39,661 bases of DNA from Defluviitaleaceae bacterium. Lineage in GTDB: Bacteria; Bacillota; Clostridia; Lachnospirales; WQUN01. Under the pieces are notes generated by a model, which saw only the letters and a program-made list of their open reading frames with translations, searched no databases and was not told the origin of the DNA. The DNA lies in the NCBI GenBank assembly GCA_009785665.1, contig WQVV01000001.1:1-39661 (forward strand), written 5' to 3'. The position numbers and the translations under genes are program-made. This document shows, piece after piece, positions 4,896 through 39,548 of the stretch (its first letter is position 1; each line of letters begins with the position of its first letter).

Positions 4896-5938
4896 ACAAT
4901 TTTGACTCTTTCGACTCTTTCGACTCTTTTGACAAACTAGAACAGCGTATTCACGATACGCTCACCGAAATAGAAGTAGACACCCAAGGATTTAAGGAGC
5001 GATTCAGCATGAACAACATGGATAAAAAACAAAAAAAACCATATCGCAGATTTGCAATGGCGGCGGCGGCACTTTTGGTGTTTGTGGCAATATCGGCAAC
5101 AGCATACGCCGCAGGCGGTGGGCTAGAGCAATTTCTATCGCGATTCAACCCAGCGTTTGGCGACTTGGCAGTTCAGCCATTAGAAGCCGTATACGCAGAA
5201 GACCAAGGCATTCGCTTTGAGGTAATCGGCGCACAGCAAATAGGCAGTTTCATTCTTATGTACATGACCATGCAGGATATGACAGGCGAAAACCGCCTAA
5301 ACCGTGACACATGGCCAGACTTTGAAGTATTTACAGATGGCAACCCAGTAGGCGGAGCAGGAAGCACCCGCAGGTTGCACTTCGATAGCAATGAAAATCG
5401 CATATACTTTGAAAAGCTAATCACAGGAGAACTGGGCATTCCCCGCGCCGAAGTTTTGGAAATAGGGGCAACGTCGGTTTTGTACACAGGATTCGGGCTT
5501 GACGTATCTCGTCCTCATCAGCCAACAGCAACTATAACAGAGGAAATCCAAACCGCAGAACCAACACCACAAGCAGGGCAAATGATGCATCATATACGCG
5601 GCGAATGGCGAATATCGCTTAACCTAGGCGAAGACATGCACACTGTACTAACATGGACAGATTTGCAGGTAGGAGATTTTTATATTGATTACATGTCCCT
5701 AACCCCACTAGGGCTTAGATTTGCGGGACACGGATATAATTTCTTACCATACGTTGACCGTCCCACCGTAGAAATTGAATTAGAAAACCGCCGCCGCAAC
5801 CTAAGATTTAGAGGACGTTCAGGGGGATTGGGTTACGATTCATTCGAGTTCACCTTCTTCGCCGAGCGCGCCCCCATTGACGTAGATGCTGTAACAGCCG
5901 TAATCATTGACGGTGTGAGAATTACTCCACTCCCCTAA
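4892..5938 (+). CDS. putative anti-sigma factor: single-pass membrane protein translationally coupled to the ECF sigma gene
   Basis: A GTGA start/stop overlap links it to the sigma gene. It has a cytoplasmic N-terminus, one TM helix (FAMAAAALLVFVAISATAYAA) and a ~270-aa extracytoplasmic domain. This arrangement is typical of Firmicutes sigma/anti-sigma pairs. Confidence 0.6.
   Translation: MNNFDSFDSFDSFDKLEQRIHDTLTEIEVDTQGFKERFSMNNMDKKQKKPYRRFAMAAAALLVFVAISATAYAAGGGLEQFLSRFNPAFGDLAVQPLEAVYAEDQGIRFEVIGAQQIGSFILMYMTMQDMTGENRLNRDTWPDFEVFTDGNPVGGAGSTRRLHFDSNENRIYFEKLITGELGIPRAEVLEIGATSVLYTGFGLDVSRPHQPTATITEEIQTAEPTPQAGQMMHHIRGEWRISLNLGEDMHTVLTWTDLQVGDFYIDYMSLTPLGLRFAGHGYNFLPYVDRPTVEIELENRRRNLRFRGRSGGLGYDSFEFTFFAERAPIDVDAVTAVIIDGVRITPLP
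4901..4933 (+). repeat. 9-bp tandem repeat (GACTCTTTC x3 plus a partial unit) encoding FDSFDSFDSFD
   Basis: Direct reading gives units at 4904-4912, 4913-4921 and 4922-4930, then GAC. Confidence 0.9.
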
Positions 5939-8324
5939 AGAAATGCCCAAAGGTGTAATTCTTGTTTTCACCCTTGTAATTTTCCGCCGAGCCGTGTAAA
6001 TGCTTCTGGTATCGTAGTATTGTGTCCGTAATGGCTTCGTCGGTTTCATCTGTAAACAAAAGGCGCAGGTATTCTATACCTGTGTCTTTTATTTCTTTGA
6101 AACGAGCGGCAGTGTCTAGGGTTTTGCTGTTTAGAATATGTGTTATGCAGTTTTCGCAATCTGTGATTACTGGGAATTTAATATCTTTTCTATCCAGCAA
6201 AACGTAATCTGCTCGCGAAAATCTTTCACTGCAAAACTTGCCGTTCTTATCCGCGCCATACAAACCCACAGGACAATTATGCGTAGACATCAAAATTTGC
6301 CGTCCATACACAATAATTTCGCAATTTTCCGAAGGCATACGCTTTAATTGCTTCGCGGTAAGTTCTTGCGAAAGCGTAACCCCAGCATCACCAAATGCCC
6401 TAGCCGAAGAATTGTTGAAAACATTAAAATTATAGTCCAGCATAATTTTCTTTTTCGTTTTGAGAAAATCCCGTAAAATGTTCAACTGCCCATAAGTCGC
6501 CACTAAATACCCATCAAAATTTGCGTCTTCCAGTTCCCGCACGCGGGTTTTGAGGGCTTCTTCATCAGCATTGCGGCTAACTGACGGCATTGCTAAAAAA
6601 ATCTCTGCACGAGATTCTGGTAGCTTGTCTAGGATTTCTGTAGTGACTTGTTTCATATCTACATACACGCGAGATATATCATGCTCAAGAACCGCGTTTA
6701 AATGGCGTATGTCCATAATTTGCACAGTAAGCTTTTGCGCTTGTGCAGACGCGATAGACTGCTTGGGAATTATCAAGTCTTCTGGCGCAAGTCGTGTTTT
6801 TGACGTGAGAATCATTTCTTCCAAGCTTTTAACAACGTCCCGCCGAACTTCATTCAACGCAAGCTTGCTTACGAAAATATTCTCATCCACATTCACGTTT
6901 TCAAACGTAATCGCGAAGGGCGAGTTGCCCATCTTTGACAATTGCGCGATTAATTCATCTTTGCCAAGCGGAGCGTTTTTTGCTTCTTCCACTACGCTCT
7001 GGCTACACGCTTCCACAATTATCTTACTGGCTTCGAGACGCGCATGTAGCTTAGAATGCATGTCCTCGGCGAAAAGCGGCTGTGCCGCTGCCGCTAACTT
7101 TACGGGCTTGCCTAGTTTTGCCTCTACGCTTCCGATAATTGAAGTCTTTGGTGTGTCGGCGGAGAGGGCTTTTTTTGTTTCGTCGATTAGCCTTTTGTCG
7201 TAGGACTTGTAAACGTCGTTGCCTACTTCGATATTGCCTTCTATTGAAATTACGGCTGTATCATTTGGCTTCATCAACTTGGAAATGCCCGTGCCAACAT
7301 TCGCGCCTTTGTTTGTCCATATTTCTATGCCATCACCTGCTAACATTTCCTTCGCGAATCTTATTGAACATTTTCCCTTTTTGTATTTTGTAACTGTACC
7401 ACAAAATACCCCCGTGCTTTTGGGAGTTTCGGTACTCATCATGGTCGCGCCGCCATACGTTTTAAAATAACCCGTAGAAAAACTTCCGCCACGATTAAAA
7501 ACCTGCGTAACATCATTAATAACACGCTTGTCTATTTTTGCGTGGTCTAGCTGGTCGCGGTATGCCTTGGTTACTACATGCACGTACTCGGGGCTTTTCA
7601 TGCGGCCTTCTATTTTTAATGCGGTTACACCTGTTTTTGTTATTTCGTCAAGCATATCCAAAGTCATCATGTCTTTTGTGCTTAGTAGATGCCCGCTTTT
7701 GATAACTTCGCCGTCTTCCAAGAAATCGTAAACCAATCGGCAAGGCTGTGCGCACTTCCCACGATTACCACTTCGACCGCCAACCATTCCCGACAAAAGA
7801 CACTGCCCAGAATACGATACACAAAGCGCGCCGTGTACAAACACTTCCGTTTCAACATCTTTGTGCGCCTGCGTAATCTGCGAAATTTCCGCCAACGAAA
7901 GTTCGCGACTTAACACAACCCTAGAGAACCCAGCCTTAGCCATAAAGCCAACGCCCTCCGCGCTATGAACCGTCATTTGAGTACTAGCATGTAATCTAAT
8001 ATCGGGAAGATTATTTTTAATCAACTCCGCAAGCCCAATGTCTTGCAGAATAAACGCAGATACTCCCATTCTGTAAACCTCTCTTGCGAATGAAAGCACC
8101 TGCGGCAATTCCTCGTTGCTATACAAAGTGTTTAGCGTGACATATATTTTCACGCCTCGTAACGCAGCGTAATCCGTTAAATTTTCGATTTCTTCTTCCG
8201 TAAAATTTTTTGCAAAACCACGCGCACTATAGCTTTTTCCACCCAAATAAATAGCGTCTGCCCCTGCGTTTATTGCGGCTTTCGCGCTATCCATATCTCC
8301 TGCGGGTGATAATAACTCCGTCAT
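5922..8324 (-). CDS. U32-family peptidase, long (~800 aa) form
   Basis: The N-terminus [27 protein letters not shown] and the segment [29 protein letters not shown] are characteristic of the U32 family. ATGA start/stop overlap with leuB. Confidence 0.85.
7027..7092 (+). repeat. Repeat family A, copy 4, inside the U32 peptidase ORF and in frame
   Basis: Sequence is CTGGCTTCGAGACG...CGGCGAAAAGCGGCTGTGCCGCTGCC. It is 66 nt and is translated on the minus strand as [22 protein letters not shown]. Confidence 0.85.
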
Positions 8325-10976: not shown

Positions 10977-11010
10977 CAAAATCCTCCTAAAGTTATACTT
11001 TTTTATTACC

Positions 11011-11090
11011 TAGGAAACTGCTTATGGCTTCGAGACGTATGTGTTAGCAGCCAATGCAGGTCGTCGGCGAAATGCGGCTATGCCGCCGCC
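11011..11090 (+). repeat. Repeat family A, copy 1 (leuD/orf178 intergenic, overlapping the orf178 stop)
   Basis: Sequence is TAGGAAACTGCTTATGGCTTCGAGACGTATGTGTTAGCAGCCAATGCAGGTCGTCGGCGAAATGCGGCTATGCCGCCGCC. Confidence 0.85.
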
Positions 11091-11614
11091 ATGATTAGAA
11101 TAATAGTCGCGATAGCCAGAACCGTAATAACACTAAAGCAACCACTTTTCGCGGGTATCCACTGGGCTTTTTCCCCAGGTCTTGCGCCGCGAAGTTGATT
11201 CATTCCTAATTTTTCAACATCGCCGTCGTCGTAATTCATTATTAAGGGCTGTTGGCTTGATAACTTACCCTTGAAAAAGCCGCCTCTTAGATGCCAGTTT
11301 CCCTCAAATGCGAAGGTGTCAAACGCTTCTTGTAATGTCACAACATGCTCTTTTTTCACTACGTCAGTCTCGCCGTCCAAAAATAATGCTTGCACATGAT
11401 GTTCATGAATTTCGCCAATGTTGGCGGGGTAGTAATATCCATCATGCGGCCAACGAGCAAAAACTATATCATTTGGCATATCCTTCGCGCCCAAGGACAA
11501 ATTCACTTCTTGATGCAATTTTTTTGAAGCCCCGCAATATACACAAGTAGCAATATTAGAACCGTGAGTAACTTCAAGATTTGCGCCGCATCGTTCACAT
11601 TGTAAGATGGTCAA
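11078..11614 (-). CDS. hypothetical protein: N-terminal zinc ribbon, two Tudor-like segments, C-terminal TM anchor
   Basis: CERCG...CVYCG forms a zinc ribbon. ARWPHDGYYYPANIGEI...ALFLDGETDVV is Tudor/Agenet-like. The hydrophobic tail is FSVITVLAIATIILIMAAA. TTG start after AGGAG; the RBS overlaps the leuC stop. Confidence 0.5.
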   Translation of the reverse strand: MTILQCERCGANLEVTHGSNIATCVYCGASKKLHQEVNLSLGAKDMPNDIVFARWPHDGYYYPANIGEIHEHHVQALFLDGETDVVKKEHVVTLQEAFDTFAFEGNWHLRGGFFKGKLSSQQPLIMNYDDGDVEKLGMNQLRGARPGEKAQWIPAKSGCFSVITVLAIATIILIMAAA

Positions 11615-12942: not shown

Positions 12943-12956
12943 TACTTTTTCCTATA

Positions 12957-13030
12957 AAACAGTGACATATCAGCCCCGCAACAATCCTGCAAATTTGCAC
13001 TATTTTCGTGAGGCTGATATGTCACTGTTT
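12957..13030. repeat. 19-bp perfect inverted repeat with a 36-nt loop
   Basis: The arms are AAACAGTGACATATCAGCC (12957-12975) and GGCTGATATGTCACTGTTT (13012-13030). The loop contains the 12-nt palindrome TGCAAATTTGCA (12988-12999). Confidence 0.9.
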
Positions 13031-13053
13031 AAGCGGAAAAAGTATCAAATGTT

Positions 13054-13113
13054 AAAAAAAATACCACCTTTCTCATATTTAAGCGTGTAAAATCGCTTAA
13101 TGAGAATAGGTGG
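13054..13113 (-). terminator. rho-independent terminator of the paralog/ABC-2 operon
   Basis: An imperfect ~20-bp stem (13064-13085 / 13094-13113) is followed on the minus strand by a T8 run (13054-13061). Confidence 0.7.
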
Positions 13114-13186
13114 CAGCGGCACAGCCGCATTTCGCCGTCAACCTGCATTGGTTGCTAACACATACGTCTCGAAGCCGTAAGCAGAA
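13112..13186 (-). repeat. Repeat family A, copy 2 (3' UTR of the ABC-2 permease gene)
   Basis: The reverse complement reads TTCTGCTTACGGCTTCGAGACGTATGTGTTAGCAACCAATGCAGGTTGACGGCGAAATGCGGCTGTGCCGCTGCC. Confidence 0.85.
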
Positions 13187-13206
13187 TAAAAAAGTGGCAA
13201 TACGCT

Positions 13207-15734: not shown

Positions 15735-15758
15735 TTTTGCCCTCCTCGGTTAGTTTAA

Positions 15759-16712
15759 TTAAGGTCTTCCAAAAAATGAATGCATTACAATGCTATCCAT
15801 GTCAACATTGCCATAGTCGTCTAGCGTGAATGTCGCGTATGACGCGCTATCCAATCTAAAAACTTCCTCCAGATTAGGAATTGGACTTTGCGGCGCACTT
15901 GTACCTATTTCGGAAAGATGCGTAACAATTTCTACATCAAAGATATTTGTTTCGCCAAAAATATTTGTTACGGCGGCATTTGCCCCAACGCGCAAGTATA
16001 TTAAATAACCAGCGGCATTTATATCCGCATAGCCATAGATGCGGTTGATTGTCACACTCTGCATTGGTACATGAACTGTCGTTTGACCCTCGCGTAATAC
16101 GAACCATTCTGCGCGTGCCGCGTCTTGCTCTACCATTATGTCTATTAGCAATTGCGCCATTTCGGGTAGTTGATTCCCTGTTATTGCTCCGCTTACGCGA
16201 CGCGTTCCGTCGCTTTGGGTTGTCATGCTCATGTGGTGTCGTAAATCGCCAACCACCATGTCCAGCCCCAATTCAATCAATCGCATTTGGTGAGAATCAC
16301 GCTCTGGTATAACATTCCTGTTATTCCCCATTGTGGTTGGGTTAAACTCATTTCGCGTATGCTTATAAATTTGAAATCTTTGTGGGTCGCCAGTATAACG
16401 AGTGTTACTATGCATACGCAGTTCTTCCGTAGAAAACATCATGTGGCTTCGCCCGTCATGATTTTCAAAGATAGACAAGATAGTTGTATCACTGGTGCTG
16501 AAATGTTGCCGCTGGTAGTGATGTATTTCGCCGTTTACACGCACAGTAATCGTTGAGTCAGTTGTAAGATTCTCGTAGAAAAATGCGTCAAACAACGCGT
16601 TTTTCAAAACTTCATACGGTGAACCATTTATTGCCGATACCATCAGCACGCCCGACAGCATCATTCCTGCTACTACAAGGCAAATCACTCGTAGTGATAA
16701 CTTCTTTTTCAT
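15759..16712 (-). CDS. signal-anchored extracytoplasmic protein, paralog 2 of 4
   Basis: N-terminus MKKKLSLRVICLVVAGMMLSGVLMVSAINGSPYEVLK. Motifs MTTQSDGTRRVSG, GNQLPE and IGTSAPQSPIPNL. The RBS TAGGAGGG overlaps the stop of the upstream paralog. Confidence 0.8.
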   Translation of the reverse strand: MKKKLSLRVICLVVAGMMLSGVLMVSAINGSPYEVLKNALFDAFFYENLTTDSTITVRVNGEIHHYQRQHFSTSDTTILSIFENHDGRSHMMFSTEELRMHSNTRYTGDPQRFQIYKHTRNEFNPTTMGNNRNVIPERDSHQMRLIELGLDMVVGDLRHHMSMTTQSDGTRRVSGAITGNQLPEMAQLLIDIMVEQDAARAEWFVLREGQTTVHVPMQSVTINRIYGYADINAAGYLIYLRVGANAAVTNIFGETNIFDVEIVTHLSEIGTSAPQSPIPNLEEVFRLDSASYATFTLDDYGNVDMDSIVMHSFFGRP

Positions 16713-16722
16713 TTACACCCTC

Positions 16723-17781
16723 CTATGATTCAAGATGCATCCCGCAAACTACTGCTAGTATGCTTCGATGTCCAAAAAATCCAATGCTATCCATGTCAAT
16801 ATTGCCGTAGTCGTCCAACATAAACTGGATTGTGCTATACCTTATGCCAAAATTACTGTCCAAAAAATCTGGCGTAAAAGTTTCCAGTAAGTTGGGGATT
16901 GGGTTTTGTGGATTACTTGTGCCAAGTTCTGTAAAATGGAAAATTTGCTCTACATTAATTTCGTGGCTACTGCCAAACATATTAACAACATCAGCATTCA
17001 TGCCCATACGAATATATGTGAGATTTCCTGTAGAATCCACAATAGCCTCTGTATACAGGCGGGTTATTTCCAAACTGCGTATCGGAATATCCACGGGAAT
17101 ATGGTAATCCTGCAACACGAAATTACTTGCCCTTGCGTAATCTGCTTCAACTCTCATATCCACAAGAACACGCCCAATTTCGGGTAGTTGATTCCCCGTG
17201 ATTGCTGCATAGAATTTTCGTGTGCCGTCGCTTTGCGTGGTCATGTTTACGTTGTTTCGCAAATCGCTAACAAGAAGGTCTAACGCGAGTTCCTTAATTC
17301 GCGTTTCGGCAGAATATCTATCGCCGCCCAAATTAAGCGTGTGCGGAATAAAAGCCCGCCCAGCCGTAACAACCCAATGCTGACTATATGGGCTTACACT
17401 TAAACGATACACCGCACGCCCGCAAGGACTAGGCACACATGTCATCAAAGACACTTCGCTTGTGCGAAACGACAGTATTCTGTCATGCCTATGCGTGTAC
17501 GCCACAGACATTCTATTAGGCGAATCCACAAATAAACTACGGTTATTGCCAACACTTTCATGCCGCAAACCATGCGCGACAACTTCGCCATCAAAGCGCA
17601 GAATGAACTCGCTGTCTAGGGTGAAGTTATCGTAAAACATAGCGTCAAACACCACGTTTTTAAAAGCCTCATATGGCGAGCCATTCACCGCCGACACCGC
17701 CAACGCCCCAAACAAGAGCATTCCAGCGATTGCAAGGCATAATACACGAACGGATAGTTTCCGTTTTTTTCCGTCTACCAT
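16723..17781 (-). CDS. signal-anchored extracytoplasmic protein, paralog 3 of 4
   Basis: N-terminus MVDGKKRKLSVRVLCLAIAGMLLFGALAVSAVNGSPYEAFK. Motifs MTTQSDGTRKF, GNQLPE and LGTSNPQNPIPNL. The start overlaps the stop of paralog 4 (ATGGTAG). Confidence 0.75.
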   Translation of the reverse strand: MVDGKKRKLSVRVLCLAIAGMLLFGALAVSAVNGSPYEAFKNVVFDAMFYDNFTLDSEFILRFDGEVVAHGLRHESVGNNRSLFVDSPNRMSVAYTHRHDRILSFRTSEVSLMTCVPSPCGRAVYRLSVSPYSQHWVVTAGRAFIPHTLNLGGDRYSAETRIKELALDLLVSDLRNNVNMTTQSDGTRKFYAAITGNQLPEIGRVLVDMRVEADYARASNFVLQDYHIPVDIPIRSLEITRLYTEAIVDSTGNLTYIRMGMNADVVNMFGSSHEINVEQIFHFTELGTSNPQNPIPNLLETFTPDFLDSNFGIRYSTIQFMLDDYGNIDMDSIGFFGHRSILAVVCGMHLES

Positions 17782-18785
17782 CTCCGTAGTTCGCTTGAAT
17801 AGCGACTTGGGCGAATGCTTTCCATATTAACATTACCATTTTCGTCCGTCACAAAAATCAACGAAGAACCGCGTGCAAGATTAGGAAACATTTCAGCTAC
17901 AAACGCTGGAGTGAATATTTCCTCTAGCCCAGCGATTGGGCTTTGCGGATTACTTGTGCCGATGTCTGTAAATTGCAAACTCATTTCAAATTCAACATTG
18001 TGGAACCTACCAAACATATCCTCAATGGTCACGGTAGCGCGACCGCTTAAATACGTTAGATTGTTGGACGAATCTACATGCGCCGTTCCTTCTAATCGGT
18101 TTATTACTAAACTGCGCATTGGAATATCAAGCACCGCGCTGTTTGGAAGGTCAGCCACATCAGACGCACTCATGTTTTGCCATGGGAAACGATGTGCGCT
18201 ACGTCCGTATTCTTCTTCTATTGCTATGTCAGTCAATAGCTGTATTATTTCGGGCAGTTGATTCCCAGAAATTGCGCCAGTTATGCGGCGTGTGCCGTCG
18301 CTTTGTGTACTCATGCTCATGTGATGCCGTAAATCGCCAATTACCATGTCCATTCCAAGTTCCATTAGGCGCATGTAATTGGAGTTGTGTAAGTCTGCGT
18401 CCATTCCGCTCCATGTGTCACGCTGGAAGCCTCTTGTATTCATGTGTAACCAATACATGTTGTACCCGCTGGAGGTAGTTCTAACATCTCTGCGAACATT
18501 AAATGTATCGTTTGAAAATCTTATGGTGTTCCCAGTAGGTGATATGGCGAAGTGACTGCTGTCGCCGTGGCTTTCATGAATGATTTCATGCTCTACGACT
18601 TCACCATTCACACGCATTATAAATTCCCCGTCTAGGGTAAAGTTGTCATAAAACAATGCGTTAAATCCCGCGTTCTTTAACACCTCATACGGCGAACCAT
18701 TAACCGCCGATACCATCAACGCTCCAGACAACATCAGGCCTGCCACTACCAAACACAACACTCGAATTGATAACTTCTTCTTCAT
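17775..18785 (-). CDS. signal-anchored extracytoplasmic protein, paralog 4 of 4 (first gene of the operon)
   Basis: I trimmed the start to ATG 18785 (GGGGAG at 8 nt), giving MKKKLSIRVLCLVVAGLMLSGALMVSAVNGSPYEVLK. Motifs MSTQSDGTRRITG, GNQLPE and IGTSNPQSPI. Confidence 0.8.
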   Translation of the reverse strand: MKKKLSIRVLCLVVAGLMLSGALMVSAVNGSPYEVLKNAGFNALFYDNFTLDGEFIMRVNGEVVEHEIIHESHGDSSHFAISPTGNTIRFSNDTFNVRRDVRTTSSGYNMYWLHMNTRGFQRDTWSGMDADLHNSNYMRLMELGMDMVIGDLRHHMSMSTQSDGTRRITGAISGNQLPEIIQLLTDIAIEEEYGRSAHRFPWQNMSASDVADLPNSAVLDIPMRSLVINRLEGTAHVDSSNNLTYLSGRATVTIEDMFGRFHNVEFEMSLQFTDIGTSNPQSPIAGLEEIFTPAFVAEMFPNLARGSSLIFVTDENGNVNMESIRPSRYSSELRRW

Positions 18786-19033
18786 AAAAATAACTCCCCT
18801 TCTTTTTGTTAGGAACTGGCAAGTTATTTCTTGACAGTTCCTTAGTTTGCGCATACATATTACACTATTCATCGCGAATATATATTACACTCTTTTAAAT
18901 ATTCCCATTTTTTACAAGCAAAAAACACAGCGCGAGTAGTTGCCCCGTTAAAATTTTTTACAAATTTTCGTAATTTTCGTAAAATCCCCACATAAGTACA
19001 CTGCTCGCAAGAATATCCGCCCCTTTCCATAGA

Positions 19034-20178: not shown

Positions 20179-20213
20179 TATAGCAAACGCACCTCGAAAC
20201 CGCGTTTGCTATA
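20179..20213. repeat. 12-bp perfect hairpin with TATAGCAAAC termini (family C, short form); possible bidirectional terminator
   Basis: The arms are TATAGCAAACGC (20179-20190) and GCGTTTGCTATA (20202-20213), with an 11-nt loop. It overlaps the stop codon of the UvrA-family gene. Confidence 0.7.
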
Positions 20214-23079
20214 AGGGGATAAGTGCTAGGAATCTTCCTGTGTGGGAGTTTTGGCATTTTGCTACTTCTTCTGGAGTGCCGTGGGCTACTATTTCGCCGC
20301 CGTTGTCGCCACCGTCGGGGCCTAGGTCTATAATGTAGTCGGCAGATTTTATTACGTCTAGGTTGTGTTCGATTACTAGAACGGTGTGACCAGAGTCTAC
20401 CAGCTTGTTTATGCTTACCAGCAGTTTTTCTATGTCGGCTATGTGTAGGCCTGTTGTTGGTTCGTCTAAGATGTATAAGTTGTGACTGCCGCGTTTTATT
20501 TTGGCTAGTTCCCACGCTAGTTTTACGCGCTGGGCTTCGCCGCCCGATAGGGTTGTGGAACTTTGCCCTAGTGTCATGTAGCCCAGACCTAGGTCGTCCA
20601 TTATGCTTAGTTTGTGGCTGATGTATTTATGTTCTTTGAAGAACTCGCGAGCTTCTTCAACGGTTAGGTTTAGGATTTCGCCTATGCTTTTTTTATTCCA
20701 TTTGACCTCCAGCCCTTCTTCGGAGAATCTCGCGCCTTTACATACTGGGCAGGTCATTTCTATATCTGCCATAAATTGTAGGCTGGTGGTTATTATGCCG
20801 TCACCTGTGCAGTGTTCGCAACGTGTGCCGTTTGCGTGGGTTAGGCTGAAGTCGATTGCCTCGTAACCCTTGGCAATTGCGTCTTCTGTTGCGGCGAATA
20901 GTTTTCTTATTTGGTCGAAAATGCCTACGTAGGTTGCTGGATTGGATTTGCTGTTGCGTCCTATTGCGGATTGGTCTATGTTGATTACATGGGTGATTTC
21001 GTCGTAGCCTAATAACATATCGTGTTCGCCTGCGACTATGCGGGCTTGACGCTTTAGAATATCTATCTGCTTGGCTAAAGTTTCATAGATTAACGTGGAT
21101 TTACCCGAACCACTTACCCCCGTTATGCACAGGAAAACACCCAGCGGAATGTCCACCGTGACATTTTTTAGATTGTTTTCGCGTGCGCCCATTATTGTAA
21201 TCATTTTGTCTGTTGCATGACGGCGGCGTTTTGGTATTTCTATGCCTTTTGTTCCTGTTAGGTACGCGCCTGTTAGGGATTTTTTGTTTTTTGTTACTTG
21301 CGCTATTGTTCCCGATGCCATTATGTTTCCGCCGTGGATTCCTGGCCCTGGCCCTACTTCTACAATGTAATCGGCGTTTCGCATTGTTTCTAGGTCGTGT
21401 TCGATTACTATTACTGTGTTGCCTATGTCGCGAAGTTTTTTCATGATGTTGATTACTTTTTCTGAATCACGCGAGTGCAGACCAATGCTTGGTTCGTCCA
21501 TGATGTATAGCATTCCCATTAGTTCGCTGCTTATTTGAGTTGACATTTTGATGCGTTGCATTTCGCCGCCCGATATGGAATCACTGCGTCTGCCTAGGTT
21601 TAGATAGTATAAACCCACGTCGATTAGAAGTTGCAGGCGTTTTATTAGTTCGTGGGAAATGCTTTCGGCTATTTCTGCATTGTGTCCCGTGTGTTTCACG
21701 CTTGTAAGGAACTCGATTAGCTTTGCGAATTGCATTGATGTTAGTTCATGTATATTCTTGCCGCCCACTTTTACCGCTAGGCGTTGTTGCTTTAAGCGAC
21801 CGCCGCCGCAATCTGGGCAGGTGGTTTCTACCATTACATCTTTGATGAAATCAGGATTCCAGCCGCTTTCATTGTGGCGCAACCAGTGATTGTATTGCCA
21901 ATTTACATCACCAACTATGCCGCCCCATACTTGCCGCCGCCCTACCATGAAGTTTCGTTTTTTCATGTTGGGCGGCTCTATCATGTCTATTTTTGTGCCG
22001 CGTGTGCCATATAGCAAGAAATCGCGGTTTTCGGGGGTCATCTTGTTGTACGGGATATTTAGGTTTACGCCGTAATGCTCTGCCGCGCTGTAAATCATCA
22101 CCCAGCGATAGGATTGTATAAAATTCTTTGGCAACGCGCTTTGACGAAAACAGCCTTCCATTATGCTTTTGTCGGGGTTGTCTATTAAAAATCTTGGCTC
22201 TATCACATGGGATTTTCCTATGCCAAAACATGTAGTACATGCACTGCTTTCGTTGTTGAACGAAAAATGAAACGCTTGTAAATCGCAAAGCGCGTAGTGA
22301 TGCGTCGGGCAGGTGTACTTCTTATAAAAACTGTCGGGGATTTTGCTGGGCGCGCTTAGAATTTCCACACGCATGGTAATTGATTCACTCAAAGAGATTA
22401 ACGCCGCTTCAATTGTTTTGGAAATATGCGCGTGCATTCCCGCCTTGATGGTTAGCGTTTCTATTATGATTTCCATTTCGTAATCGGTGTCTTCGTCTAG
22501 CTCGCGTTTTTCGGATAGGTCGAAGGGTTCGCCGTCTATTAGTAATCGCTTGTAGCCCTTTTTGCGGATTATATCGAATAGGTAGGTGAAATCCGTACCA
22601 GGGATTTTTTCCGTTGGAACTCGTAATTCAACTACAGTGCCTTTCGGCAAAGAGGAAATATGCTCTGCCATGCGGGAGGCGTTGACCTGCTTTAATGCAT
22701 GTCCACAAACTGGGCATTCGCCAACGCCTACGGTTGCGAACAACAGCCGTAAATAATCTTGAATATCCGTAACCGTTCCCACCGTCGAACGTGGGTTGAA
22801 ATTCCCCTTCTTCTGCTCAATAGACACAACTGGCGAAAGCCCCCGCACATACTTAACATCGGGCTTCTTAACTTGATTAATGCGTCCCTTAGCAAAATTC
22901 GAGATTGATTCCAAAAAACGCCGTTGCCCTTCGCCATAAATAACGTCAAACACCAGCGAAGATTTACCCGACCCAGACACCCCCGTTACAACCGTAAGTT
23001 TATCACGGGGAATTTCCACATCAACATTTTGCAGATTATTTTGGTTCGCGCCAATTACTTCGATGGTTTTTCTTATCAT
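20209..23079 (-). CDS. UvrA-family (excinuclease ABC subunit A-like) double ABC ATPase, divergent
   Basis: Two Walker A motifs ([18 protein letters not shown]), two signatures ([16 protein letters not shown]) and Walker B motifs ([20 protein letters not shown]). Zn modules [15 protein letters not shown] and CEHCTGDG...CPVCKG. I chose the start at ATG 23079 ([10 protein letters not shown]); alternative upstream starts exist up to 23127. Confidence 0.85.
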
Positions 23080-23370
23080 TTTATTTGCTCCCGTAGCTTT
23101 TTCGTTATTTCTATCCAAAATATTCACCTCGTTGGGCTATGATGAAGTTGATAGCCCTAAATCAAATTTGCCAATCTTCATTGTATCACATTATACCATG
23201 AGGGGAGGATTTTTTTGATTATGTTTATAAAACTGCTCTGAGCCATGGTAAAAATAAGCCATTCTGACGGTAAGTAACGACCAAACTTTTTTGGGGATTG
23301 GTATAAGCCCGTTATATTGTGGCGAAAATTTTCATGTAAGCAAATTGCTATATTATGGGAGGCATCAGCC

Positions 23371-26361: not shown

Positions 26362-26634
26362 ATGGATGTATATTTCACCGATATTGCAAATAAGGAACTA
26401 AAAAACTGGCTGAAATCAGACCGTTTAACTGCCAAGAAAATTTACGACCTTATCAGCGATATTAAATCACATGGAATGTTAGGCGGTCGCGGCAAACCCG
26501 AACAATTAAAGCATTACAAAAATCTGGTGCGATTTTCAAGGCATATTAATAAAGGAGATAGGCTCGTTTATTGTCTGCAAGATGAAAAGGATTTGTTAAT
26601 TATTTCATGCAAAGGGCATTATGACGATAAATAA
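26362..26634 (+). CDS. yoeB: YoeB/Txe-family toxin (mRNA interferase)
   Basis: A 90-aa protein. The segments KKIYDLISDI...GKPEQLKH...SRHINKGDRLVY...ISCKGHY follow the YoeB pattern (GKPEPLKH...RRI...HRLVY...HY). Confidence 0.85.
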   Translation: MDVYFTDIANKELKNWLKSDRLTAKKIYDLISDIKSHGMLGGRGKPEQLKHYKNLVRFSRHINKGDRLVYCLQDEKDLLIISCKGHYDDK

Positions 26635-26647
26635 GAAAGAGCGCACT

Positions 26648-26763
26648 TATAGCAAACAACTTTCAAAATCGTGATTGTGCGTCGGACAAAAACAGCCAAA
26701 AACGCTCATTTCGCGTTTTTGGCAACCCTCCTTCAATCACGTTTTTCAATGTCGTTTGCTATA
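26648..26763. repeat. ~116-nt imperfect palindromic element with TATAGCAAAC termini (family C, long form)
   Basis: The arms are TATAGCAAACAACTTTCAAAATCGTGATTG (26648-26677) and CAATCACGTTTTTCAATGTCGTTTGCTATA (26734-26763). The inner perfect hairpin is GCCAAAAACGC / GCGTTTTTGGC (26695-26723). Confidence 0.8.
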
Positions 26764-26832
26764 TGTACCACAACGAGAGTGGTACGTGCGTAAAGTTTAT
26801 ATTTGTTTCACTATAACGAGAGGGTGAATGGT

Positions 26833-29160: not shown

Positions 29161-29919
29161 CTAAACAATATGACCATAAAAATATTTCTTTCCACGCTCC
29201 CATTCCATTTTAGAAAGTGATTCTGTGTAGTCTAGGATTTCTTTTACTACTTGGTTTGTGACTATAGTTTCATATTCCAATGGGCATTTTTTTCCCGACC
29301 AGATTGAAAGCAATGATGGAATTGTATACATTTTAAATGGTTCGTTAAGATACATTGCCGACATTGCACGCTGTTGAATTATCTTGGTCAAATCCCCAGC
29401 AAATGATGGCTTCTGTTCGTAGAAATATGAAGTAGACCGACTGTTTTCAATCCCCAAATAATAATTTCCGATGTCCTCAAATGTTACATCATCACCCAGT
29501 ACTGCGCCTAGTATTTCTGCTAAAGCATCTCGTATCATCGCTTCTACTTGATAGTTTCCAGTCCATTCTTCTAGCAAGACTAGCAAATACGGAACAATTT
29601 CGTAGGATAAAAAATCTGATGCCCTAGCTGTGAATGTTTTAAGCGTGTCTGTAGACGCGTTTAATAAAAAAATAAAATTATCCGAGTCTCGTATGTCTTC
29701 ATGTGTTGCAATTGACGAAAAAATTTCTATACATAATTGCAACACTTCGTCATCTCCCGTGCTGTTCATAAGCTGCACCAACAATGGTTTTAAAGAAAAA
29801 TCACCAAGCTTGAATAAATCCACCAAGTTGAAAATCAACTCTTCTTCGTTAATGGATTCGTCGAAAATTAATTTTTTTATCTCTGTGGGATTTACTTTTT
29901 CTACTTCTCCATACCACAT
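29161..29919 (-). CDS. hypothetical cytoplasmic protein (252 aa), immediately downstream of mutS
   Basis: An ORF with the RBS AGGGTGGA. I recognised no motif. By eye it looks predicted-helical and AT-rich. Confidence 0.5.
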   Translation of the reverse strand: MWYGEVEKVNPTEIKKLIFDESINEEELIFNLVDLFKLGDFSLKPLLVQLMNSTGDDEVLQLCIEIFSSIATHEDIRDSDNFIFLLNASTDTLKTFTARASDFLSYEIVPYLLVLLEEWTGNYQVEAMIRDALAEILGAVLGDDVTFEDIGNYYLGIENSRSTSYFYEQKPSFAGDLTKIIQQRAMSAMYLNEPFKMYTIPSLLSIWSGKKCPLEYETIVTNQVVKEILDYTESLSKMEWERGKKYFYGHIV

Positions 29920-29984: not shown

Positions 29985-32624
29985 CTACAAAAGCTCTTTC
30001 AAGCGGGATAGCGTTAGTAGTGCTTCTAGTGGGGTAATGTCGTTTACATTTATTTCGGATAGGGCTTGGGTTAGCTTTTGCTCTGTTTCGGTTTCTGTTA
30101 CCGTAGCAGAACTGGCTTCGTGATGTACATGCGGGTTTGCGTGAATGCCATCGGCGTTAAAAATATTTAGTAATTTTGTGGCGTGGGATAGTACGTTTTT
30201 TGGTAGGCCTGCTAGGCGTGCTACGTGGATTCCGTAGCTTTGACCTGCTTCGCCGTGGATTAGCTTTCTTAGGAAAACTATGTTTTCGCCTTGTTCTTGG
30301 GCTGTGAAGCAATAGTTTTTTACACCTTCTATTTGACCTTCTAGTTGGGTTAGTTCGTGGTAATGAGTGGCGAATAGCGTTTTTGATTGGGTTTTGTTGG
30401 CTATGTGTTCTAGTACTGCCCATGCTATCGCTAGGCCATCGAAAGTGCTTGTTCCGCGACCTATTTCGTCTAGTAGAACTAGGCTGTCTTTTGTGGCGTT
30501 GTTTAGAATGTTGGCTACTTCGGTCATTTCCACCATGAATGTGCTTTGCCCTGTTGCGAGGTCGTCGGACGCGCCTACTCTGGTGAAGATGCGGTCGGTT
30601 ACGCCTATATCGGCGGATTGGGCTGGCACGAACGAACCTATCTGCGCCATTAGCACAATCAGCGCGACCTGTCGCATGTACGTTGACTTACCTGCCATGT
30701 TAGGCCCTGTTATTATTGCCAAACGGTTGTCTTGACTCATATCGGTGTCGTTTGGCACGAAGGCTTGGGGAGTTAGTTTTTCTATTACTGGGTGGCGACC
30801 TTCTTTTATTGTTATGTTTGTTCCGTTGGTTACGGTTGGTTTTGTGTAGTTGTTTACCTCGGCTGTTTCGGCTAGGGACTGGAACGCGTCCAGTGTTGCC
30901 AGCACTGATGCCGCGAATTGTATGCGTGCCATTTCATCAACTATTTCGCGGCGTAGTGTGTCGAATAACTCGTATTCCAAGGTTATTATTTGCTCGTCCG
31001 CGCCTAGTAGAGTTTCTTCTAGGTTTTTTAGTTCTTCGGTTACGAAGCGTTCGCAGTTTGCCAAGGTTTGGCGACGAATATAGTTGTCTGGGACTTTGGA
31101 TAGATTGGTGGCGGTTACTTCTATATAGTAGCCAAATACGCGGTTATAGCGGATTTTTAGGCTGGTTATTCCTGTTTCTTGCTTCTCGCGGGCTTCCATT
31201 TCTTCCAGATAGCCTTGGGCGTTTTCTTTTATATCGCGCAACTTGTCTAGTTCGGAGTTGATGCCGTCGCGTATCATGCCGCCTTCACGGGCTGTTGCTG
31301 GTGGCGTTTCGGTTATGGTTTTTTCGATTTTTTCATAAATGTCAGCCAAAGTATCGTAGGTGCGGCGAATTTCGCTGTTGGCCTCGCTTTTTGTGTGGGT
31401 TAAAAGGCGTTCTATTGCGGGTAGAAGTTCTATGCTTCCTCGCAGAATTGCCAAGTCGCGGGCAGTGCCGTAACGCGTGGATAGCCGCGCCATTACGCGT
31501 TCAAGGTCGTGTATGCCGTGCAAATACTCGCGGATTTCGGCGCGTTCGATGGGCATTTGCTTCCATTCCGATACTGCATCTAGGCGGCGGTTTATTTCTT
31601 TTGTGTTCATTAACGGAAGGTCTACCCAGCTACGCAGTAGACGCGCTCCCATTGCGGTTTTTGTGCGGTCTAGCACCCATAACAACGAGCCTTTTTTCCC
31701 CCTGTCGTGGGCGGCGGCGGTTAGTTCCAAATTTCGGCGGCTGGAGATGTCTAGTATCATGTGGGTTTGCTGGCTGTATGTTTTTAGCCGCGTTATTTGC
31801 GATAACGCGTTTTTTTGCGTGTCTGATAAGTATTCCAACAACGCCCCTGCCGCTGGGATTTCTGGCGCGTTTTCTACCAGACCAAAGCCTTCTAGGTGCA
31901 TTGTACCAAAATGCTCTGTTAAGCGTTTATGCGCGTTTGATAGATGGAATGTCCATGCTGGAACAGTAGTTGCCTTCACCCCCGTGATGTTTTCAATCAC
32001 GCGGGTTAGCGGGAAATTTTCGGGTAGAACAATCTCGGCTGGGTTTATTCGAGAAAGCTCGTCCAGTAATTTTTGCTCCGACATTGGAAACTGGCTTCGA
32101 GACGTATGCGTAGTTTCAGACGCAGGTTGTCGGCGAGAAGCGGCTGTGCCGCCGCTGTTAGGAATCGCCGTTGCCATAAACAGCCCCGTGGTTATATCCG
32201 CACATGCAAGCGAAAACCCCGCCTTGTCGCTGAAAATTGCCGCGATATAATTATGCCGTCCTTCGTCAAGGAAATTCGCGTCTGTGATTGTACCTGGTGT
32301 TATTACGCGAATTACGTCGCGCTTAACTATTCCCTTCGCTTGCTTCGCGTCCTCCACTTGGTCGCATAACGCGACTCGATAGCCCTTTTCTACAAGCTTT
32401 GCAATATATCCGTCTACCGCGTGTGCTGGTACGCCGCACATTGGCGCACGTTCTGCCTGCCCGCAGTCGCGCCCTGTTAGCGCGATGTCAAGTTCCTTTG
32501 CCGCTATTTTCGCGTCATCAAAAAAAATCTCAAAAAAATCGCCAAGCCGAAACATCAATATTGAATCCTTGTGATTCGCCTTAATGCTAAAATACTGCTC
32601 CATCATTGGGGTCATTTTTGGCAT
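29985..32624 (-). CDS. mutS: DNA mismatch repair protein MutS (carrying a repeat-derived insertion)
   Basis: N-terminus TPMMEQYFSIKANHKDSILMFRLGDFFE, Walker A GPNMAGKST, and DEIGRGTSTFDG. RBS AAGGAG. Confidence 0.95.
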   Translation of the reverse strand: MPKMTPMMEQYFSIKANHKDSILMFRLGDFFEIFFDDAKIAAKELDIALTGRDCGQAERAPMCGVPAHAVDGYIAKLVEKGYRVALCDQVEDAKQAKGIVKRDVIRVITPGTITDANFLDEGRHNYIAAIFSDKAGFSLACADITTGLFMATAIPNSGGTAASRRQPASETTHTSRSQFPMSEQKLLDELSRINPAEIVLPENFPLTRVIENITGVKATTVPAWTFHLSNAHKRLTEHFGTMHLEGFGLVENAPEIPAAGALLEYLSDTQKNALSQITRLKTYSQQTHMILDISSRRNLELTAAAHDRGKKGSLLWVLDRTKTAMGARLLRSWVDLPLMNTKEINRRLDAVSEWKQMPIERAEIREYLHGIHDLERVMARLSTRYGTARDLAILRGSIELLPAIERLLTHTKSEANSEIRRTYDTLADIYEKIEKTITETPPATAREGGMIRDGINSELDKLRDIKENAQGYLEEMEAREKQETGITSLKIRYNRVFGYYIEVTATNLSKVPDNYIRRQTLANCERFVTEELKNLEETLLGADEQIITLEYELFDTLRREIVDEMARIQFAASVLATLDAFQSLAETAEVNNYTKPTVTNGTNITIKEGRHPVIEKLTPQAFVPNDTDMSQDNRLAIITGPNMAGKSTYMRQVALIVLMAQIGSFVPAQSADIGVTDRIFTRVGASDDLATGQSTFMVEMTEVANILNNATKDSLVLLDEIGRGTSTFDGLAIAWAVLEHIANKTQSKTLFATHYHELTQLEGQIEGVKNYCFTAQEQGENIVFLRKLIHGEAGQSYGIHVARLAGLPKNVLSHATKLLNIFNADGIHANPHVHHEASSATVTETETEQKLTQALSEINVNDITPLEALLTLSRLKELL
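32091..32156 (+). repeat. Repeat family A, copy 3, inside the mutS ORF and in frame
   Basis: Sequence is CTGGCTTCGAGACGTATGCGTAGTTTCAGACGCAGGTTGTCGGCGAGAAGCGGCTGTGCCGCCGCT. It is 66 nt and is translated on the minus strand as SGGTAASRRQPASETTHTSRSQ. Confidence 0.85.
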
Positions 32625-36092: not shown

Positions 36093-36785
36093 ATGATAAA
36101 CTATATTTTAAAACGCTCGGCGCGTAAAAGTTTGGGGATTTACATAAAAGGTGGCGAAGTTGAAATTCGCGCCCCATTTCGTGTACCCATGCGCGAGATT
36201 GAAGCCTTTGTTAATTCAAAGACACAGTGGATAAATGAAGTAGTAACAAAACAACAAAAACACGCAGAAGCGGTGGAAGCTTTTCGCTTGAATGGCGATA
36301 GCCTAATTTTACTACGCGGGCAGGAAACACGCGTTGCAGATATTCTGCCGCTTAGGCTTTCTTGGGGGAGAAAGCCTTTGGGTGCTTCCGATTTTTCGGA
36401 TTCGTTGGCGTTGGAGGAATCAGATGCAATTAGGGCTGATTGTGTTAAATTTTATCAACGCACCGCAAAAGTTGTAATTGCAGAACGCGTAGCGTATTTC
36501 TCCGAAAAAATGGGCGTGTCCCCCGCGTCGGTAAAAATCACCAGCGCGAAAACCCGTTGGGGTAGTTGCATATCCAAAAAACGAATCAACTTCTCGTGGC
36601 GGTTGATTATGGCTCATGATGATGTTATTGATTATGTAGTAGTTCACGAACTAGCCCATTTGTTAGAAATGAATCACTCATCACGATTCTGGGCAATAGT
36701 CGCGAAAATTCTGCCCGATTACAAACAGCGACAGGCGCAATTAAAAATTTTGCACAGGCGGATTGTACACGAGGGCTGGAATTGA
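36093..36785 (+). CDS. YgjP-like M48-family metallopeptidase (DUF45)
   Basis: HELAHLLEMNHSSRFW zinc motif near the C-terminus. The N-terminus YILKRSARKSLGIYIKGGEVEIRAP is typical of YgjP. Confidence 0.85.
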   Translation: MINYILKRSARKSLGIYIKGGEVEIRAPFRVPMREIEAFVNSKTQWINEVVTKQQKHAEAVEAFRLNGDSLILLRGQETRVADILPLRLSWGRKPLGASDFSDSLALEESDAIRADCVKFYQRTAKVVIAERVAYFSEKMGVSPASVKITSAKTRWGSCISKKRINFSWRLIMAHDDVIDYVVVHELAHLLEMNHSSRFWAIVAKILPDYKQRQAQLKILHRRIVHEGWN

Positions 36786-36786
36786 G

Positions 36787-36870
36787 GCGGGCGGCACAGC
36801 CGCTTTTCGCCGAGGACATGTATTGGCAATCTAACGTGTACATCTCGAAGCCAGATACAATTTCCTAGCC
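36787..36870 (-). repeat. Repeat family A, copy 5
   Basis: It begins 1-2 nt after the M48 stop. The plus strand reads GCGGGCGGCACAGCCGCTTTTCGCCGAGGACATGTATTGGCAATCTAACGTGTACATCTCGAAGCCAGATACAATTTCCTAGCC. Confidence 0.85.
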
Positions 36871-36880
36871 TACAAAAAAG

Positions 36881-36960
36881 CGACACAGCCGCTTTTCACC
36901 GAGGACATGCATTGGCAATCTAACGTGTGCGTCTCGAAGCCAGATGCCGTTTCCTAGCCT
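36881..36960 (-). repeat. Repeat family A, copy 6 (direct tandem with copy 5, ~93-nt period)
   Basis: The plus strand reads CGACACAGCCGCTTTTCACCGAGGACATGCATTGGCAATCTAACGTGTGCGTCTCGAAGCCAGATGCCGTTTCCTAGCC. Confidence 0.85.
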
Positions 36961-36962
36961 AC

Positions 36963-37001
36963 AAAAAAATCCACATCTATGCGGTAGACGTGGATTTTTT
37001 T
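36963..37001. terminator. bidirectional rho-independent terminator between the convergent M48 peptidase and MCP genes
   Basis: A7 run, then an 11-bp stem ATCCACATCTA / TAGACGTGGAT (one A-C mismatch) with a 5-nt loop, then a T7 run. Confidence 0.75.
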
Positions 37002-37002
37002 G

Positions 37003-37083
37003 CTTAGGAAATTGTATCTGGCTTCGTGACGTATGCGTGGCTTGCAATGCATGTTATCGGCGAAAAGCGGCTGTGCCGCTAGA
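37003..37083 (+). repeat. Repeat family A, copy 7 (inverted relative to copies 5 and 6; abuts the MCP stop codon)
   Basis: Sequence is GCTTAGGAAATTGTATCTGGCTTCGTGACGTATGCGTGGCTTGCAATGCATGTTATCGGCGAAAAGCGGCTGTGCCGCTAG. Confidence 0.85.
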
Positions 37084-39346
37084 CTTTGAAATATGATACC
37101 AACTGCTGTAGTAACTCTGCTTGAGAGGTTAGTTCTTGTGATGCCGCGGCTGTTTCTTCTGATACTGCGGAGTTGTTTTGTACTACTTGGGAAATTTGTT
37201 GCAAGCCCTGACCTACTTGACCTACTGCATCTGCTTGTTCTTTAGATGCTTCGGCAATGCTGTTTATTATTTCCATTACTTCGGTTGCGTTGCTTACTAT
37301 GATGTTTAGTGCTTCTGATGTTGTTTGAGCAATTCCAGAACCTACATCTACCCTTGAAATAGAAGCTAGAATCATTGCCTCTGTTTCTTTTACGGCCTCT
37401 TGGCTTCTGGACGCTAGGGTTCTTACTTCGTCGGCTACTACGCCAAAACCCTTTCCGTGTTCGCCTGCGCGTGCGGCTTCTACCGAAGCGTTTAGAGAAA
37501 GCAAGTTTGTTTGGAACGCAATATCTTGAATTGTCTTGATGATTTTGGAAATATTGTTGGACGATTCTTTAATTTGCGCCATAGCTTCAACCATTTCATT
37601 CATGGCGTTGTTGCCCGCTTGGGCATTGGCGTTGGAGGTATTGGAAAGGGTATTTGCGTTGCTTGCGTTTTCGGCGTTTTGGGAAGTTTGCTGATTTATT
37701 ATATCCACGGAAGCGTTAAGTTCTTCTACGGAGCTTGCCTGTGTTTGCGCGCCTTGCGCTAAATCAATCGCGCTTGTGGATATTTGTTTCGCGCCAGACA
37801 ACACCTGCCCTGATGCCGACGAAATTTCTGCCATAGTTTTTCTCAAGGTGGTTGATATATGATTAACAGCTTCTTTTGTTACGATATACTCCCCTACAAA
37901 ATCCATGTCAATAGTTTTGCGTAGGTCGCCAGACGCGATTTCACCAAGCACATTGTTAATTTCAGCCATATATTTAGACGTGTCTTCGATAAAGTAGTTT
38001 AGGTCATTTTTCATGGATAAGAAATCACCAGCGTAATCACCAGTCACTCGAGCATCAAATAATCCCTTGTTTAATACGCTAAGAACGTCACGTATTTCCA
38101 CAATAGGCACGTCTGTCGCATGACAAATATCATTAAGACCATTTAGAATTTTGTTCCAGTCACCAAGATACTTTGACGCATCAATGTGATACGCCAAGTC
38201 TCCTTTTACTGCCGCCGCGTCAACCATGCCGTTTACTTCGGCAACTACATCTTTCAGATTGTTTGTGCATCTGTTCATTGCCTGCGGCAACGCAGCCCAG
38301 TCACCTACCCAGATTGCATCTTCCAATTTTACATTAAAGTCGCCATCGCTTACATGATTGAGAATATCGCTTATGCTTAATACATCCGTTGAAGTTTGCT
38401 TGAGAATGGTATTAACAAGCCTAACAACTTCTTTGTACGAATTGTTATATTTGCTCTCGTCGATTGTGAATTTCAAATCGCCAACTTCTAAAAATTGGTC
38501 GTGTGCCATGGTTAAATCGTCCATGATGCTCTTGATTACATCTACAAGTTTGATTACATCGGTAGTAAGCATACCCACTTCGTCTTTGCCAATCTTCGCT
38601 CTATTGATGTTTATGTTAAGGTTTCCAGCAGAAACATTGTTTAAAGCGTCAACAGTTCTTTTAATTGGTCTTGTGATTGCACTAGAAATTACAAACGCAA
38701 TAATCACACCAAATGCTATGCCGATAATAGCAACTGCCAGCATTATCCCAGAAGAAATACCAGCAAAAAGTGAAGCCGAAGTAAAAAGCCCGTCTACTGT
38801 TTCCTGTGCGGCATTGGTAAGTGCTATGAAAACATTGTCTATGCCCGCAAGAATTGGGGTTGCTTCTTCTAAAATTTCTGGCAACAACCTATCGGACGCA
38901 CCAGTAGCGACCGCGTAAAGCGGATACACAATAGTGTTGAAATAGTTGTTAAGGTGATTATTCTGCAAGCCGTATGCCGCGTTAATTCCTGCTTCTCGCG
39001 TTTCTTCATCAATGCGTGGGTCGTCGCGTAGGCTTTCGCGATACTTTTCTAAAAGCTCATATATTACCTCTCGGCTTGCCACCACTGATGCATATGCATC
39101 TTCAATAACTTGTGGATGGTCTGCTGATGCCGCGATTAATGCTACATTTGTGCGTAGTCTATGGACTTCAATTTCCGTCTGTAGTAGCAAGTTGTACCTT
39201 GCAGTTGGATGACTTGCGGCATAACGATAATCGCTATTTATTCTGGTGACGGTAACTACGCCATAAATTGCCATAGCAAGCATAATAATTAACAAAATTC
39301 CAAAACCAATTCCTAATTTGCCCGCGACCTTTGTGTTTCTTAACAT
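37079..39346 (-). CDS. methyl-accepting chemotaxis protein
   Basis: N-terminal TM helix, large sensor region, second TM helix/HAMP and the highly conserved signalling hairpin [35 protein letters not shown] chose the start at ATG 39346 (TGGAGGAA at 7 nt). Confidence 0.9.
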
Positions 39347-39548
39347 AATAACATTCCTCCAATATAGGTTACGCATGATAATGGTGTAATACCTTTGGAT
39401 AAAAATAAATTTATGATTTTATTTTTACCCAAAAGGCGACAAATGCGAATGGGAAAATTCCCCGTTCGCATTTGAAAAAGTATAGCCATTCTAAGATTTT
39501 TTCGTTCTCTAGTCAAGTGATAATCTACACCAAAGGTTGCATAAAAAA

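Follow-up and report, generated by a model that had tools for sequence, protein, structure and literature searches.

An uncultured termite-gut bacterium of the Defluviitaleaceae (Bacillota, Clostridia, Lachnospirales) carries within its mismatch-repair gene mutS a copy of a short interspersed repeat, here named family A. The stretch of DNA analysed, referred to as the window, comprises 39,661 nt (contig WQVV01000001.1 of assembly GCA_009785665.1; the set of metagenome-assembled genomes is described in PMC7024585). With a probability of about 0.85, the segment in mutS is a lineage-specific family A copy that was inserted in frame and is translated as a near-neutral, disordered loop. Direct support was obtained for the membership in the family, the empty sites in relatives, the presence in an independent assembly, the constraint on the host gene, the location in a loop and the independence of the reading frame; insertion as the mode of origin and the near-neutrality of the insert are what we infer from these observations.

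The repeat copy in mutS

The repeat family proved to be real. The 22-nt pattern of its 5' block, GCGGCAYAGCCGCNTNTCGCCG, occurred seven times in the window at an expectation of 0.00, and the 12-nt pattern of its 3' block, CRTCWCGAAGCC, eight times at an expectation of 0.34. To avoid circularity, an nhmmer profile was trained on the five intergenic copies alone. It found the mutS copy at 32154-32082 (E=1.1e-14), a copy in a U32 peptidase gene at 7091-7027 (E=1.3e-15) and a weak, partial second copy in mutS at 30156-30111 (E=0.008); with a core profile of 23 copies the mutS copy was found at E=5.5e-16. An earlier note, made from the sequence of the window alone, had proposed the family. Its intergenic coordinates were correct to within a few bases, and the plus-strand letters it gave for 32091-32156 matched exactly on re-reading.

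The host gene is constrained. Its product matched the Pfam domains MutS_I, II, III, IV and V in this order (E 1e-23 to 1e-88), contained the motifs GDFFE and GPNMAGKST (mismatch binding, Walker A), aligned to structures of Escherichia coli MutS with E=5e-59 and kept the invariant catalytic motifs in an alignment of 48 sequences. The ratio of non-synonymous to synonymous substitution rates (dN/dS) was 0.055-0.064 against the orthologues P0002 and P0004; mutS is under strong purifying selection. The repeat copy lies wholly within the open reading frame (ORF), adds whole codons and has no stop in the mutS frame, as the earlier note had read it, and the translation continues through the copy as AIPN-SGGTAASRRQPASETTHTSRSQ-FPMSEQKLL. 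The profile envelope of this copy reaches 32082, thus the insert may extend to about 75 nt, through FPM.

The nearest MutS proteins belong to uncultured Defluviitaleaceae, many of them from termite-gut metagenomes. No insert is present in the closest orthologues, P0002 (80 % identity) and P0004 (78 %), at either the protein or the DNA level: ALPN-EQ-SEQKLM in P0004 and AIRGEDEQKLL in P0002 stand opposite AIPN-[25 aa]-SEQKLL in the window. These empty sites reveal a net gain of 22-25 codons. A homologous segment was present at this position in none of 32 aligned MutS relatives, which bears out the lineage-specific indel of about 22 aa proposed in advance. The variable length of this loop across the Defluviitaleaceae could suggest an ancestral MutS loop that was lost by the relatives, the intergenic repeats being derived from it or resembling it by chance. 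This explanation is effectively refuted by the 32 relatives without the segment, by the loop inserts of P0008, P0020 and P0022, which miss the family profile, by the similarity to intergenic copies at E=1e-14 together with the many intergenic sites in other contigs, and by the occurrence of the same element in the U32 peptidase gene, which reads it in another frame.

Many metagenome copies of family A were located at contig ends, because the repeat breaks assemblies, and a repeat-induced chimera in the mutS contig has this observation in its favour. Contig L034, an independent assembly from another sample, is 99.86 % identical to the window over 13.4 kb and has the same insert in the same place, with two substitutions of its own inside it. 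The insert is therefore no assembly artefact; the kept reading frame and the flanks, collinear with those of the orthologues, leave such a chimera an exceedingly small probability. Of the objections named beforehand in the earlier note, neither a homologous segment in orthologues, nor a loss of the similarity under statistical control, nor an artefact was encountered (alignment, E=1.1e-14 and L034, respectively).

The insert is situated inside the connector domain II and not, as first thought, between the mismatch-binding and the connector domain. Pfam MutS_II extended over residues 125-277, which are 153 residues for a profile of 132 positions. In the alignment to E. coli MutS, residues 4-152 of the window protein corresponded to residues 10-158 and residues 180-274 to residues 160-252, with residues 153-179 facing the single E. 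coli residue 159. An AlphaFold2 model based on the 48-sequence alignment had a mean predicted local distance difference test score (pLDDT) of 79 and presented the insert as a disordered loop: residues 159-178 were modelled as coil (pLDDT below 50), flanked by a strand at 149-155 and a helix at 181-193, both predicted with confidence. According to the model, the insert would be a surface loop of the connector domain, compatible with the fold and tolerant of indels. Defluviitaleaceae MutS has an indel hot spot in this loop, the length of which varies among relatives. P0008, P0020 and P0022 have other inserts of 15 to about 30 aa exactly there (L037:650-738, L038:10454-10531, L039:2205-2318). These were rejected as family A copies, as they did not match the profile and were not repeated in the DNA examined. 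The loop insert of P0022 is visibly palindromic (GGAAGAAGACCGCGGCACAGAGTCTTCCTTCCGCGG...).

In the U32 peptidase, a hairpin of the DUF3656 domain is longer by about 21 residues owing to the family A copy, and all 18 aligned orthologues are without these residues; Pfam DUF3656 covered 135 residues for a profile of 109 positions. The codons read are GCG GCA CAG CCG in the U32 copy and GGC ACA GCC GCT in the mutS copy, confirming the frame difference that had been described for these two genes, and the second mutS copy is read in another frame. Since the U32 copy is translated in a different frame, the insert must be regarded as an element of DNA rather than as a peptide module. The earlier note had come to the same view, with which the empty orthologues and the missing peptide homologue agree. 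The 30-aa peptide of the insert had no match when 1.84 billion representative proteins were searched, which lends weak support to the non-peptide view. Concatenated translations of the element in three frames retrieved nothing from the protein database at E<=10; this search also missed MutS itself and is hence uninformative.

A removal of the segment before the mature protein is formed, in the manner of an intron or an intein or by translational bypass, would leave MutS unaltered. Splicing mobile elements, the IStrons, exist in Clostridia (PMC4227781); direct support for removal was not obtained. Each of the three intragenic copies keeps the frame of its host open and consists of whole codons, which removal would not need. 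With 64-75 nt the segment is far smaller than group I or group II introns and inteins, and neither an Rfam match nor a structure supported by covariation was detected. We regard removal as very improbable.

The second copy in mutS is degenerate. Its 3' 16-mer, CATCACGAAGCCAGTT, is identical to that of family members on contig L051. It is located in the hypervariable C-terminal linker, where the model has a pLDDT below 50 at residues 832-844. The two copies in mutS have direct orientation, are about 2 kb apart and are read in different frames.

The MutS proteins of the window and of L034 differ in 2 of 879 residues, both within the 22-aa insert, which would fit a relaxed constraint in this part. 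On the DNA level, with a patch at the contig end excluded, a segment of 104 bp around the insert accounts for four of the eight differences (32037, 32052, 32111, 32140). Two of the four clustered changes are non-synonymous changes in the insert, and one alters an otherwise invariant base of the hairpin of the element. Local hypermutability or a small recombination tract could have caused the cluster.

A functional insert may modulate mutS, either by ribosome pausing at the hairpin or as an interaction surface for MutL, or may be a recombination substrate: deletion or conversion between the two mutS copies, or with copies elsewhere, could give rise to mutator variants. All invariant blocks of the element are kept in the mutS copy, two copies in direct orientation are available within the gene, half of the strain differences cluster around the insert, and intragenic repetitive extragenic palindromes (REPs) are reported to be frequent in DNA repair genes (PMC3733652). 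Against a function speak the insert peptide, modelled as disordered and without homologues, and the non-synonymous nature of both strain differences in the insert. The RNA fold of the copy is no better than that of shuffled sequences (z=-1.1). The second copy, with 16 nt exact and about 72 % identity over 46 nt, is a poor substrate for homologous recombination, and a similar insert is present in the U32 peptidase, which has no link to repair. Taken together, a function of the insert appears improbable, though less so than removal. As mutS sets mutation and recombination rates, genome stability would be affected if the loop or the repeat altered MutS activity or promoted rearrangements.

The insert has most likely to be seen as a tolerated passenger. 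A short-form copy of family A would have entered mutS after this lineage had diverged from those that carry the closest available orthologues. It may have persisted because it was the short form without tail, because it brought a multiple of three bases without a stop in the mutS frame and because it fell into a surface loop that tolerates indels. Transcribed and translated together with the gene, it would form a loop of about 22-25 residues, hydrophilic and disordered, that is most likely neutral or nearly so for MutS function. The same origin is proposed for the U32 copy and, presumably, for the degenerate copy in the linker. Several points weigh against an in-frame insertion translated as a near-neutral loop. 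The translation of the insert is something we infer. The intact blocks of the mutS copy could reflect a recent insertion or a function that the DNA or RNA of the element still has. A target-site duplication and the exact boundary were not definable at a dS of about 2 to the nearest empty site. The cluster of differences within 104 bp may indicate that the region does not evolve simply neutrally. Finally, a candidate for a transposase or another mobilising enzyme was found neither in the window nor in about 73 kb of element-bearing contigs.

Architecture and distribution of family A

The core of family A has a length of about 64 nt and consists of GCGGCACAGCCGC, WTTTCGCCGA, a variable part of about 25 nt and ATACGTCWCGAAGCCAG, the conserved blocks being nearly invariant. 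A long form extends the core by an A-ending tail of about 27 nt, ATGAACAGTTTCCTAGGCAATAAAAAA; the short form terminates with GCCAGT, usually GCCAGTT. Every intragenic copy is of the short form, as would be expected from the tail TTTCCTAGGCAATAAAAAA, which carries stop codons in two of the three frames. Terminal inverted repeats are absent, as the ends GCGGCACAG... and ...GGCAATAAAAAA have no mutual complementarity. Adjacent copies are arranged head-to-tail (36787/36880 in the window, L053, L051) without inverted dimers. An A-run flanks 7 of 24 copies on both sides, and three of these seven are tandem units.

The palindromic character ascribed to the family earlier is not notable. It is limited to one invariant 5-bp hairpin, GCGGC-ACA-GCCGC, with variable 5' flanks; folding of the whole element gave z-scores of +0.5 to -1.3, and covariation was lacking. 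The sole CGTC of the element is a separate conserved block about 40 nt from the hairpin. A two-hairpin RNA model, in which 88 % of the cells were pairable, was rejected as its covariation was no better than that of shuffles, and RNAalifold retained just the invariant 5-bp hairpin, leaving a structured RNA unsupported. The whole window had no match in Rfam at the gathering threshold; at permissive E values the region with three intergenic copies yielded only generic hairpin families, which fell on a terminator-like hairpin. A terminator role for the element hairpin and a T-run was dismissed too: a consensus scan gave no call, and ATTTCG follows the stem in many copies. A tblastn search with an approximate IS200 TnpA query left the element-bearing DNA empty; the one match was in L054, a different organism without family A.

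Eight copies were counted in the window (Table 1), and a metagenome scan with a two-block pattern revealed 20 more in 13 contigs from termite gut. In the window, two to three of the eight copies are inside genes for conserved proteins. For a scan of genome contigs, the 22-nt 5' pattern by itself proved too permissive, and of at least 33 loci, 31 had matched by chance in GC-rich genomes; among the matches listed, only L021 and L033 (Defluviitaleaceae Co191P1bin4) were relevant. The scan of viral contigs detected no family A copies. Relatives with orthologues of 65-80 % identity had zero or only divergent copies in 13-23 kb each, thus the expansion of family A is confined to this lineage.

Table 1 Family A copies in the window and the genes that contain them
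Feature	Position	Strand	Remarks
U32 peptidase ORF	5922..8324	-	800 aa, host of a family A copy
Family A core copy in the DUF3656 domain of the U32 peptidase	7027..7091	-	nhmmer E=1.3e-15
Intergenic long-form copy	10999-11091	-	Loop variant CATAG supplies the TAG stop of ORF 11078..11614
Intergenic copy	13111-13193	+	Sole window copy antisense to its flanking genes
mutS ORF	29985..32624	-	879 aa, intact, all five MutS domains
Second family A copy in mutS, degenerate, 3' half	30111/30112-30156	-	C-terminal linker of MutS, ADGIHANPHVHHEAS; nhmmer E=0.008
Family A core copy in mutS, short form	32091..32156	-	MutS residues 157-178, SGGTAASRRQPASETTHTSRSQ
Intergenic long-form copy	36787-36879	+	Begins 2 nt past the stop of a YgjP-like gene; first unit of a head-to-tail tandem pair
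Intergenic copy	36880-36968	+	Second tandem unit, 91 % identical to the first
Intergenic long-form copy	36995-37084	-	First G completes the TAG stop of a chemotaxis receptor (MCP) gene, 37079..39376

Intergenic copies were closely associated with stop codons. Of about 13 intergenic copies that could be evaluated, at least 10 had a 5' hairpin that began 0-11 nt past the stop of a co-oriented upstream ORF or overlapped it. These sites include 36785-36791, 37079-37084 and 11078-11091 in the window and L042:505-509, L044:1482-1484, L050:4527-4537, L051:2972-2985, L052:942-952 and L053:4832-4833 in other contigs. In two window cases, the MCP gene and ORF 11078..11614, the element itself supplies the TAG stop. 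Such a placement suggests that the element is directed to the ends of genes or acts in connection with translation termination. It corresponds to what Di Nocera et al. (2013, PMC3733652) described for REPs and is similar to that of the pneumococcal BOX and SPRITE repeats (PMC3049150). Liang, Rudd and Deutscher reportedly found in 2015 that translation is lowered via ribosome stalling where a REP lies no more than about 15 nt from a stop codon. The tight association is a clean, testable pattern and could inform on REP-like targeting or selection.

Some arrangements of copies deserve a separate mention. Contig L051 has two tandem short-form copies (7711-7864) in the 5' leader of a gene for an ABC-transporter ATPase, the sequence of which resembles LivF; this is a resemblance only, with no family search behind it. 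On the same contig, the copy at 2901-2988 follows directly after an ATGA stop/start overlap and may serve as coding sequence for approximately the first 25 residues of the membrane protein downstream. Its 5' extension, AACAGCGGCGGC, and its reading frame are those of the mutS copy. In the window, a bidirectional, terminator-like hairpin at 36969-36994, ATCCACATCTA-TGCGG-TAGACGTGGAT with A and T runs, separates convergent genes. A tandem pair of family A copies flanks it on one side and a single copy on the opposite side; every one of the three is sense-oriented with respect to its gene.

Other features of the window

A near-perfect palindrome of 114 nt (12937-13050; 57-nt arms, 81 % complementary, no spacer) is located upstream of an aconitase-family (leuC-like) gene and adjoins the only antisense family A copy. 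On the minus strand, 14700-18872 contains four tandem paralogues of 317-365 aa, which form the repeat families D1, D2 and D6 at a spacing of about 1 kb; they adjoin an ABC transporter pair, and the two that were scanned had no Pfam match. A 972-aa paralogue of UvrA (20209-23127), with UvrA interaction, UvrA DNA-binding and ABC domains, is present in the same window as mutS. A toxin-antitoxin pair of the YoeB/RelB type (26362-26634) adjoins a 33-nt inverted repeat at 26645-26766. Directly downstream of mutS is a gene for an Imm47 immunity protein (29161-29919; L034:13046-13593), and a mutL gene is not adjacent.

Comparison with known repeat systems

In-frame insertions of repeats into conserved genes are classically known from the Rickettsia palindromic elements (RPEs; PMC10969869). 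Family A is alike in that one repeat occurs between genes and in frame within housekeeping genes, the hosts being intact, the orthologues empty and the sites in surface positions or loops. RPE-1 differs in its length of about 150 bp and in encoding a conserved RPE peptide, whereas the core of family A has about 64 nt and a variable frame. The host of RPE-1 is an obligate intracellular alphaproteobacterium, that of family A a free-living gut member of the Clostridia. RPE-1 is palindromic, family A with its one 5-bp hairpin and z-scores of +0.5 to -1.3 appears not markedly so, and a sequence relationship between the two is not expected.

Intragenic REPs are reported from several phyla, many of them in genes for DNA replication and repair, e.g., uvrA, uvrB, recBCD and dnaE (PMC3733652). 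Like REPs, family A copies lie mostly just 3' of ORFs, in sense orientation and between unidirectional or convergent genes, and a minority lies in ORFs, encoding about 20-30 aa, with repair genes among the hosts. REPs are hairpins of 20-40 nt with a GTAG/CGTC tag, mostly in inverted dimers, whereas family A elements of 64-90 nt have one 5-bp hairpin, two conserved unpaired blocks and head-to-tail tandems. In the main text of PMC3733652, mutS is not named among the REP hosts. A gene for a REP-associated tyrosine transposase (RAYT; Y1/HUH) was seen neither among the ORFs of the window nor in the element-bearing DNA.

The pneumococcal BOX, RUP and SPRITE are likewise small interspersed repeats of a Firmicute and enriched at the 3' ends of genes (Croucher et al. 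2011, PMC3049150). BOX overlaps 58 coding sequences and provides the stop codon in 36 of them (PMC3049150); family A supplies stops in a similar way to ORF 11078..11614 and the MCP gene. Internal insertions of BOX and RUP into coding sequences are gene disruptions and not tolerated in-frame additions to conserved domains, and these repeats possess terminal inverted repeats and a tight folding, of which family A has neither (PMC3049150). The earlier note was aware of no equivalent of the Rickettsia case in Firmicutes. For Clostridia, a limited literature search found no published case of a tolerated in-frame repeat insertion in the middle of a gene. The novelty is nevertheless smaller than the note implied, given the 58 coding sequences overlapped by BOX (PMC3049150) and the intragenic REPs in several phyla.

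An assignment to a described class was rejected in three cases: as a REP, family A deviates in size, tag and dimer arrangement; as a miniature inverted-repeat transposable element (MITE), it lacks the terminal inverted repeats; and as RPE-1, it lacks the fixed frame. In Streptococcus pyogenes, the mutS-mutL operon is interrupted by SpyCIM1, an excisable island of 13 kb that switches its expression. Both systems place mobile DNA at a mismatch-repair locus of a Firmicute and could affect the mutation rate, but the family A copy would be a permanent, translated 66-nt part of MutS without evident switching. Selfish repeats that turned into protein parts, known from the RPEs of Rickettsia and the REPs of proteobacteria, are with family A extended to uncultured gut Clostridia and to mutS. 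Family A might even represent an undescribed class of elements in Clostridia, with blocks conserved in sequence more than in structure, neither terminal inverted repeats nor palindromic dimers, a placement at or within about 11 nt of stop codons due to gene-end targeting or a termination-coupled function, a sizeable coding fraction and the pair in mutS as a possible mutator substrate; we consider this a tentative and rather unlikely extension. In its behaviour, family A acts like the RPE and REP elements, yet it belongs to none of them.

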